This document shows positions 3,815 to 4,577 of a DNA stretch of 10,287 nt, piece by piece. Every line of letters starts with the position of its first letter. Position 1 is the stretch's first letter. The notes beneath the pieces were generated by a model. It had not been told where the DNA came from. It worked only from the letters and a program-made list of their open reading frames with translations, and made no database searches. The stretch comes from a virus (Duplodnaviria; Heunggongvirae; Uroviricota; Caudoviricetes), in IMG/VR virus record IMGVR_UViG_2541047728_000006, positions 1 through 10,287 of that record, one strand, 5' to 3'. The position numbers and the translations under genes are program-made.

Positions 3815-4035
3815 ACCCGCAAACCACACTTCCCTTTAAAACGCGTAACATACATTGCTTGCGTTTAACTTTCTTTGAACTCTTGCAGAAAAATGAGAAT
3901 TCGTGAGTACGATCACTCAAAATCGCCTGGCAAAAATAAAATCACCCTATAGATGCACAAAAAACGGGCAAAACTACCTGGTTCGCAAAACTGCGTCTAA
4001 AGTTAAACCGGGACCTCGCGAGCAAGGGTGAGACG

Positions 4036-4104
4036 ATGGCGCTTTACACAATTGGTGAAGTGGCGTTGCTTTGTGATATTAACCCTGTCACGTTACGCGC
4101 GTGA
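4036..4104 (+). pseudogene. mlrA: mlrA (yehV) 5' remnant: first 22 codons ([22 protein letters not shown]) then TGA; MerR-family curli regulator gene truncated by prophage insertion
   Basis: The 22 residues match the recalled N-terminus of E. coli MlrA ([30 protein letters not shown]...). In the intact gene codon 23 is TGG (W); here it is TGA and the downstream sequence is unrelated to a MerR-family protein. Confidence 0.85.
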
Positions 4105-4216
4105 CGCAACATTTTTAAAAATCGACGAAGATCGTCCAGGAGCGCCATTTTTCAAGGGTTGGACAGATGATTCGTTTTCGATGTCGACGAACTTCGACGG
4201 ATTTCGCCGATAAAAA

Positions 4217-4249
4217 GTGTCCCATACATGCCCCATAGATGCCCCATAG
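4217..4249. repeat. Tandem direct repeats: ATGCCCCATAG twice (4228-4238, 4239-4249), preceded by a degenerate copy GTGTCCCATAC (4217-4227); candidate integrase arm-type or accessory-factor binding sites
   Basis: Seen directly in sequence, about 115-145 bp inside the prophage from the junction. Confidence 0.6.
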
Positions 4250-4262
4250 GCAATATTACCAA

Positions 4263-4292
4263 TTGACACTGGTTATCCACACAGCTAAAAAT
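4263..4292 (+). promoter_or_regulatory. Candidate sigma70 promoter for the dinI-like gene: TTGACA (4263-4268), 17-bp spacer, TAAAAA (4286-4291)
   Basis: Perfect -35 hexamer, 4/6 match at -10; positioned immediately upstream of the LexA box and the gene. Confidence 0.45.
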
Positions 4293-4297
4293 AACAC

Positions 4298-4313
4298 CTG
4301 TACATAACTACAG
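4298..4313 (+). promoter_or_regulatory. LexA operator (SOS box) CTGT-N8-ACAG: acCTGTACATAACTACAGtt
   Basis: Matches the CTG-N10-CAG core of the E. coli SOS box consensus TACTGTATATATATACAGTA. Lies between the putative -10 and the SD AGGAGGGGG (4318-4326) of the dinI-like gene. Confidence 0.72.
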
Positions 4314-4328
4314 TTACAGGAGGGGGTT

Positions 4329-4577
4329 ATGCGTGTTGAGATCTGTATCGCTAAAGAAAAAATCAGCAAAATGCCGAAAGGTTCTGTTCCTGCTCTGCAG
4401 CAAGAAATGCTGCGCCGCATAGGTAAGCGATATGACGATGCAGATGTGATCGTTAAATCTGCCAGCAATGATGGACTCACCATTTTAAGAGCCGTCGATA
4501 AAGAATCAGCACTGGAGTTCGTACAGGAAACACTACAGGAAGTCTGGCAAACCGCGGACGACTGGTTTATGCAATAA
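4329..4577 (+). CDS. DinI-family protein (82 aa), prophage-encoded
   Basis: Translation [37 protein letters not shown]...[10 protein letters not shown] resembles E. coli DinI (MRIEVTIAK... C-terminal ...WESADDWF). Strong SD 3-11 nt upstream; LexA box in the leader. Confidence 0.85.

Follow-up and report, generated by a model that had tools for sequence, protein, structure and literature searches.

A sigma-S-dependent mlrA promoter facing a DinI-like gene across the int-distal junction of a lambdoid prophage in Escherichia coli

The effect of prophage insertion in mlrA (yehV) on curli and biofilm formation of Escherichia coli has been extensively published (PMC5931665, PMC3874044), and the insertion has been catalogued as a case of regulated gene integrity, or active lysogeny, in which the prophage inactivates mlrA and its excision restores the gene (PMC7192596). 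That scheme concerns the host gene and not host control of a phage gene, which is the subject here for the same insertion. We analysed 10,287 nucleotides of a Caudoviricetes record (IMG/VR IMGVR_UViG_2541047728_000006, positions 1 to 10,287; this whole stretch is called the window), in which the start of mlrA is joined to a prophage end carrying a dinI-like gene. An earlier note on this DNA, made from the sequence alone, had suggested that the retained mlrA promoter could read into the prophage and couple the dinI-like gene to stationary phase. Our results showed that the structure permits such read-in, and the reading we favour, with moderate confidence, is that it is low in level and probably inconsequential, bounded by a terminator at 4669-4688, the dinI-like gene being governed by its own LexA-controlled promoter.

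The junction structure is already known and widespread. Features that map one-to-one onto window coordinates are already annotated in the GenBank entry AP000400 of the Shiga toxin (Stx) 1 prophage VT1-Sakai (Sp15)/CP-933V of O157:H7: the truncated yehV', an attachment site of 20 bp, a 'putative SOS box', a 'putative promoter of H0001 and H0002' and H0001 itself as DinI. The two junctions share the same core, the same mlrA codon and the same truncated yehV', and the recombination arm together with the dinI upstream region is 87.8% identical, the annotated promoter and SOS box falling on 4263-4291 and 4296-4315. VT1-Sakai differs in that the ykgJ-like H0002 follows dinI (H0001), whereas in the window a terminator stands directly after dinI, and the window element lacks Stx and is a degraded remnant of the kind typical of IAI39/UPEC129-type strains. 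Using a 140-bp junction probe, we found the mlrA'-arm junction in 475 of 5426 complete E. coli genomes. Transcription entering the phage DNA from the orphaned mlrA promoter is mentioned neither in the AP000400 annotation nor in the searchable literature.

Two other described systems bear on the question. In O157 strain PA20, transcription crosses the opposite junction from phage to host, and distal mlrA was upregulated 62-fold at 30 °C under SOS induction, as examined by quantitative reverse transcription PCR (PMC5931665). The same core was crossed on the same strand without a stop, so the core sequence is not a barrier and mlrA-prophage junctions are permeable. The PA20 case differs in its direction, out of the int side and into the 3' portion of mlrA, and in its driver, which is prophage induction rather than a host sigma-S promoter. 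The second system is the dinI-antirepressor operons of the Gifsy prophages, where a prophage DinI homologue likewise comes first behind a LexA box and a sigma-70 promoter (PMC3121763). In Gifsy, the cassettes are separated by 1.3 kb from the replication genes upstream, with terminator-like palindromes before them and an antirepressor gene after them (PMC3121763), whereas the window cassette abuts the arm, has no upstream terminator and is monocistronic. Since palindromes precede the Gifsy cassettes, the lack of insulation in the window is a genuine difference.

The mlrA promoter and the attachment core

The segment 3700-4750 (1051 bp) was 100% identical in several human E. coli isolates, including UPEC129, and 99.9% identical in IAI39. 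In the RefSeq annotation of IAI39, yehR, yehS, btsR and btsS (minus strand) are followed by a 22-codon partial coding sequence and the DinI-like gene, and then by two small hypothetical genes, a tail fibre gene, Lom and J, while the far prophage end runs from an IS629 fragment and a group II intron to a truncated tyrosine integrase and distal mlrA. This gene order indicated that the window takes in the host flank on the left side together with the int-distal end of a lambdoid prophage integrated in mlrA. Judged from its sequence, the region is the attachment (att) junction on the int-distal side of a lambdoid prophage that integrates in mlrA (yehV); the equivalent site in the JLK-2012 record is annotated as attR.

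On the host side, the sensor kinase gene btsS (yehU; 2129-3814, minus strand, placed by RefSeq of the IAI39 segment and by K-12) is divergent from mlrA, and the two genes share an intergenic region of 221 bp (3815-4035). When window 3800-4103 was aligned with the btsS-mlrA region of K-12, two substitutions were found, one near 3859 and the other at 4083. The mlrA promoter is sigma-S-dependent and is repressed by FliZ in post-exponential phase, and its mapped features comprise T(-14)C(-13), T(-12) and T(-7) flanking the -10 hexamer, T(-6) and the spacer motif CAAAACTG (PMC3367168). All of them were present in the window and identical to K-12, and they fit in a single place, so that the sigma-S-dependent core promoter and FliZ target was assigned to 3986-4010 (plus strand), with CAAAACTG at 3986-3993, TC(-14/-13) at 3996-3997 and the -10 element TAAAGT at 3998-4003. 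From these positional constraints we infer a transcription start near 4010 and a leader of some 26 nt. Another element, C-TATAGA at 3947-3953, was also considered as the mlrA promoter and was dropped, because TC-TAAAGT at 3996-4003 matches the experimental constraints (PMC3367168). The promoter region of mlrA is therefore retained, in agreement with the earlier note, and its sigma-S and FliZ features are complete.

The mlrA' remnant (4036-4104, plus strand) begins with ATG at 4036, runs through 22 sense codons to 4101 and stops at TGA 4102-4104, which agrees with the length and the end point proposed before. Its stop codon was made at the junction, the TG coming from the shared core and the A (4104) from the phage, and the remnant is annotated as the partial coding sequence of IAI39 (RefSeq) and as yehV' in VT1-Sakai. 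The homology to mlrA stops at 4104, and the core covers mlrA codons 17-22. This core, CCTGTCACGTTACGCGCGTG (4084-4103, 20 bp, with the inverted repeat GTCACG/CGTGAC), was common to the window, the int-side junction of IAI39 and K-12 mlrA in a three-way alignment; its occurrence at both prophage ends and in intact mlrA identifies it as the att core, and the misc_recomb feature of VT1-Sakai is the identical 20 bp. Around the start codon, at 4031-4070, the native mlrA 5' mRNA forms a hairpin of -15.8 kcal/mol that pairs the start-codon region with codons 6-11 and may limit translation of both mlrA and the 22-codon stub.

The DinI-like gene, the phage arm and the search for terminators

The DinI-family gene (4329-4577, plus strand, 82 amino acids (aa); 'DinI-like family protein' in RefSeq) shares its strand with the mlrA promoter, as had been stated. 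Its identity was supported by Pfam DinI PF06183 (62 bits, cutoff 24.2) and by a full-length match to E. coli DinI, PDB 1GHH (E = 8e-11), including the C-terminal acidic ADDWF helix. A Shine-Dalgarno sequence, AGGAGG, lies at 4318-4323. The predicted sigma-70 promoter of the gene (4263-4291, plus strand) consists of TTGACA at 4263-4268, a 17-nt spacer and TAAAAA at 4286-4291; it coincides exactly with the 'putative promoter of H0001 and H0002' of AP000400, and its -35 element is invariant in six relatives. The putative LexA (SOS) box ACCTGTACATAACTACAGTT at 4296-4315 contains CTGT-N8-ACAG (4298-4313) as the sole match in the window, where 0.13 are expected by chance, and corresponds to the 'putative SOS box' of VT1-Sakai. 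It is placed just downstream of the -10 element, over the expected dinI start, and across the path of a polymerase reading in from mlrA.

Between the core and this control region, 4104-4262 is the int-distal phage recombination arm and not a regulatory leader, as recognised by its repeats and its conservation. It carries TG(T/C)CCCATA three times with 11-bp spacing (4218, 4229 and 4240), TCGACG(A/G)A three times (4122, 4184 and 4194) and the palindrome GACGAAGATCGTC at 4125-4137. The motif TGTCCCAT/TGCCCCAT recurs on the other arm, at the 3' end of int, where TG(T/C)CCCAT is found twice. Such a pattern is expected of arm-type integrase sites, and the repeats and the palindrome are putative binding sites for Int (arm-type) and for accessory proteins. 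Conservation of the arm and of the dinI control region reaches 86-100% in VT1-Sakai, BP-4795, JLK-2012 and YYZ-2008, and the arm also occurs in phages that integrate in yecE. Open reading frames across the arm (4028-4213, plus strand; 4093-4269, minus strand) had no Pfam match and were treated as spurious, and an Rfam scan of 3700-4800 (E <= 1) detected no family and no known small RNA or sib-like element.

Two further observations concern the arm. BP-4795 has the 11-bp repeat ATGCCCCAT(T/A)G four times in tandem (about 170-215; compare window 4229-4250), and other relatives have two copies and one degenerate copy, so the copy number of the putative arm-type Int sites varies between relatives. 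In addition, a palindromic T5A5 tract (4112-4121) lies between the core hairpin on the plus strand and GACGAAGATCGTC (4125-4137), which the minus-strand scan called terminator-like; this arrangement at 4107-4137 might act as a weak pause site or terminator in both directions, or bend the DNA of the arm as an IHF-type site.

Both strands were scanned for a single hairpin followed by a T-rich tail, scored by the d'Aubenton-Carafa discriminant (d) with ViennaRNA energies. Three terminators in the window served as calibration, at 4669-4688 on the plus strand (d = +33) and at 8135-8118 (d = +42) and 7381-7358 (d = +44) on the minus strand. No canonical intrinsic terminator was found on the plus strand among stems ending at 4036-4335, where the best candidate reached d = -34. 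The earlier statement that 4105-4329 holds no convincing intrinsic terminator was thus upheld, this best value standing against +33 to +44 for real ones. The first strong intrinsic terminator on the plus strand is at 4669-4695 (GGGGAGC-loop-GCTCCCC and T7), with a folding energy of -13.2 kcal/mol for the 20-nt hairpin and -15.2 kcal/mol for the segment 4660-4700, and 4669-4688 is the outer limit of any read-in or dinI transcript.

A consensus scan flagged one weak site that the earlier note had not mentioned. This terminator-like element (4086-4116, plus strand) consists of the core hairpin at 4086-4106, a CAACA spacer and U5 at 4112-4116. The hairpin has 8 pairs and -9.8 kcal/mol, was excluded or scored low in the d scan, and overlaps the stop codon of the remnant, so that a terminating ribosome would mask it. 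We therefore regard the element as a weak, non-canonical terminator at most.

In the lambda paradigm, the int transcript runs through attP and on into the far arm, and tI/sib lies beyond int. The window's prophage resembles lambda in this direction of int transcription, and in that arm-type repeats flank a core with inverted core-type sites. It differs in that no tI/sib-like terminator or RNase III hairpin was detectable in the far arm by the d scan, the Rfam scan or the fold of 4030-4345, which was not more stable than its shuffles (z = -1.2), and in that the first terminator comes after the dinI-like gene.

How far host transcription may reach

Site-specific recombination in the 20-bp core left the divergent btsS/mlrA control region, the sigma-S/FliZ-regulated mlrA promoter and the 22-codon stub immediately in front of the phage arm and a putatively LexA-repressed dinI-like gene, all in one direction. 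We read this geometry as a side effect of the way in which the integrase family makes use of its core. As the arm has no canonical terminator, a polymerase starting near 4010 can in principle cross it and dinI to reach 4669-4688. In our reading the dinI-like gene would be expressed mainly from its own promoter, which is near consensus and LexA-gated. When the phage is circular, int would take the place of the mlrA promoter and read into the same arm and dinI.

We consider read-in from the mlrA promoter to be probably real but minor. It would be minor because the RNA is untranslated over 224 nt and C-rich, which favours Rho, because the LexA operator lies in the path, and because the promoter is restricted to stationary phase and repressed by FliZ. 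The candidate Rho utilisation region is a C-rich, G-poor stretch at 4187-4314 (plus strand) with a C/G ratio of up to 2.8. The proposal that read-in couples the dinI-like gene to stationary phase therefore stood in its structural part, namely an intact promoter, co-orientation, a remnant reading frame ending at 4104 and no canonical terminator before 4669; functional coupling found no support, and some indirect evidence speaks against it. Part of this evidence comes from EDL933, whose prophage CP-933V has been placed at mlrA by the literature. In a microarray comparison of EDL933 wild type and rpoS mutant, no gene of O-island 93 (CP-933V) was among the RpoS-activated genes of Table 4 and the supplement, and the supplement has no entry for yehV or for a prophage dinI (PMC2907692).

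One alternative, which follows the earlier proposal, is that promoter capture is functional, so that read-in yields a meaningful amount of sigma-S-dependent DinI-like protein in stationary phase and gives an SOS-controlled gene a second input that modulates RecA or prophage behaviour. The intact sigma-S promoter, the co-orientation and the lack of a canonical terminator before 4669 are all consistent with it, as is the LexA box without a preceding terminator-like palindrome, unlike that of the Gifsy dinI cassettes (PMC3121763). We regard it as unlikely, as no O-island 93 gene was RpoS-activated in EDL933 (PMC2907692), the 224-nt untranslated leader contains a C>G tract and meets the LexA operator, and many O157 lysogens have rpoS lesions (PMC3874044); about 70% of the surveyed O157:H7 strains combine the mlrA prophage with an rpoS lesion (PMC3874044). 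Moreover, the minimum free energy fold pairs 4095-4105 with the dinI start, so the read-in RNA might translate poorly, although this is a weak prediction given the z of -1.2.

The same geometry recurs at yecE, the second target of the phage family, which also agrees with promoter capture. In the yecE-integrating phages PPyecE_EH1910 (1-342 and 343-363) and L022, an arm and dinI module 87.7% identical to that of the window stands directly after a related 21-bp core, GCCCGTCACTTTAACTGCATG, and the host flank, made up of the yecD end and the first ~32 codons of yecE, reads into the arm in the same orientation as at mlrA. The related cores at mlrA and yecE indicate that one integrase family uses two related cores. 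A PPompW relative was considered as a third independent target and rejected, since it is a degenerate yecE' copy inside another prophage, leaving two independent targets only. Both targets put a host 5' gene end before dinI, but two related cores would share an orientation by chance in about one case in four, and n = 2 is compatible with chance. A more far-reaching version holds that the mlrA/yecE integrase family always lands within the first 22-32 host codons, oriented so that an un-insulated, LexA-gated dinI-like gene sits behind a captured promoter, and that sigma-S read-in would damp RecA-mediated SOS and prophage induction in the starving lysogen, an adaptive capture common to the O157:H7 Stx1 prophages and ~9% of complete E. 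coli genomes. We consider this very unlikely.

Conversely, transcripts from the mlrA promoter may stop before the dinI-like gene, either because the core hairpin with U5 (4086-4116) serves as a weak terminator aided by other factors, or through Rho acting in 4187-4330. The -9.8 kcal/mol hairpin, the U5 that would put the 3' end (4114-4116) 8-10 nt from the stem, the palindromic T5A5 flank with a second small hairpin on the other strand, and the C-rich, G-poor untranslated RNA would fit such insulation, as would the negative EDL933 RpoS result (PMC2907692). Yet the five proximal tail positions are CAACA and not U, the tail score is below 2 and d is far below that of real terminators, while a ribosome terminating at UGA 4102-4104 would sit on the hairpin's 3' arm. 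Work of Cardinale and colleagues in 2008 is said to have found that Rho, NusA and NusG silence transcription of horizontally acquired DNA, which would also count for insulation; but Rut-like composition is common and a poor predictor of Rho action, and the strong AGGAGG of dinI could shield the RNA from Rho once it is reached. Complete insulation of this kind appears rather improbable to us, though less so than functional capture.

A third alternative explains the open arm by the phage itself. The tyrosine integrase lies at the opposite end, reading toward the core; beyond the window, it is truncated in IAI39, and a full 428-aa copy stands upstream of attP in the IMG/VR contig L026, where a xis-like gene, int, core, arm and dinI are all co-directional. 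This attP layout means that int-side transcripts of the circular phage face the same open arm. The dinI-like gene might then be the last gene of an int-xis unit, with 4669-4688 acting as the lambda tI, and host read-in would be its mirror image. In L026 the int stop is ~45 nt from the core, transcription leaves the int side across the core in PA20 (PMC5931665), and there is no plus-strand terminator until after dinI. Against this, the argument is one of position only, neither a sib-like RNase III structure nor an Rfam match was detected, and dinI has a strong promoter of its own that needs no int-side input. We take this design as a possible, tentative explanation.

Low-level, probably inconsequential read-in thus remains the reading we favour, and several points weigh against it. 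The EDL933 microarray was built for another question, may lack a probe specific for the dinI paralogue and is open to cross-hybridisation between paralogues. The C-rich tract at 4187-4314 is moderately unusual, within the top 2-4% of 78-nt windows, and judged by composition Rho loading there is suggestive at best. A LexA roadblock of the read-in polymerase is assumed, and the rank of 'minor' given to read-in is our judgement. Finally, by analogy with Gifsy, the missing palindrome could be a sign that input from upstream is tolerated, or even made use of.

The decayed prophage, its neighbouring genes and the meaning of the junction

In the IAI39-type lineage the prophage is a decayed, Stx-less remnant of ~17.5 kb. 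At its other end (IAI39 33823-37803), fragments of IS629/IS3 together with a group II intron (ltrA) split the tape-measure gene, and the integrase, truncated at its N-terminus, adjoins distal mlrA. Given the truncated int and the decay of the prophage, excision, and with it restoration of mlrA, can probably no longer occur in this lineage, in contrast to O157 strain PA20, and the mlrA switch is probably locked off in IAI39-type strains. The distal mlrA fragment (IAI39 37839-38525) is annotated by RefSeq as an intact 228-aa 'MlrA' with a non-canonical ATC start inside the att core, reading ATC CCT GTC ACG. It is without the first 15 residues, including part of the MerR-type helix-turn-helix, and the annotation is probably a homology-driven artefact. 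Among the relatives, Stx2_12E129_PPompW (679-791) shows a Stx2a phage inside prophage PPompW, at a degenerate yecE 5' fragment carried by the resident prophage; this yecE' copy is apparently a secondary attB from an earlier imprecise excision.

Downstream of dinI, two small conserved hypothetical genes (4695-4991 and 5001-5279, minus strand) precede the tail-fibre gene. The product of 4695-4991 had a sub-threshold holin-like Pfam match only (18 bits, cutoff 26.4), and that of 5001-5279 had no Pfam match. The dinI terminator has no T-tail on the minus strand, and within the dinI-like reading frame a borderline antisense hairpin with T6 was found at 4363-4377 (minus strand, d = +6); minus-strand transcripts of the tail-fibre operon may run antisense into dinI toward the mlrA/btsS control region. 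The two strong minus-strand terminators (7358-7381, d = +44, and 8118-8135, d = +42) flank an Ail/Lom-family gene (7488-8087), which therefore forms a cassette of its own between J and the tail-fibre gene.

One main cause of poor curli and biofilm formation in O157:H7 and some other pathogenic E. coli is prophage insertion in mlrA. The present analysis fixes the exact anatomy of the junction, with its promoter, core, arm sites, SOS box and first terminator, and indicates that the absence of a terminator in the arm is real. The regulatory idea is structurally permitted, currently unsupported, modestly interesting and cheaply testable. If the sigma-S promoter did drive the DinI-like gene, a phage RecA modulator would be tied to starvation signals, and this link could influence the spontaneous induction of Stx and other prophages.

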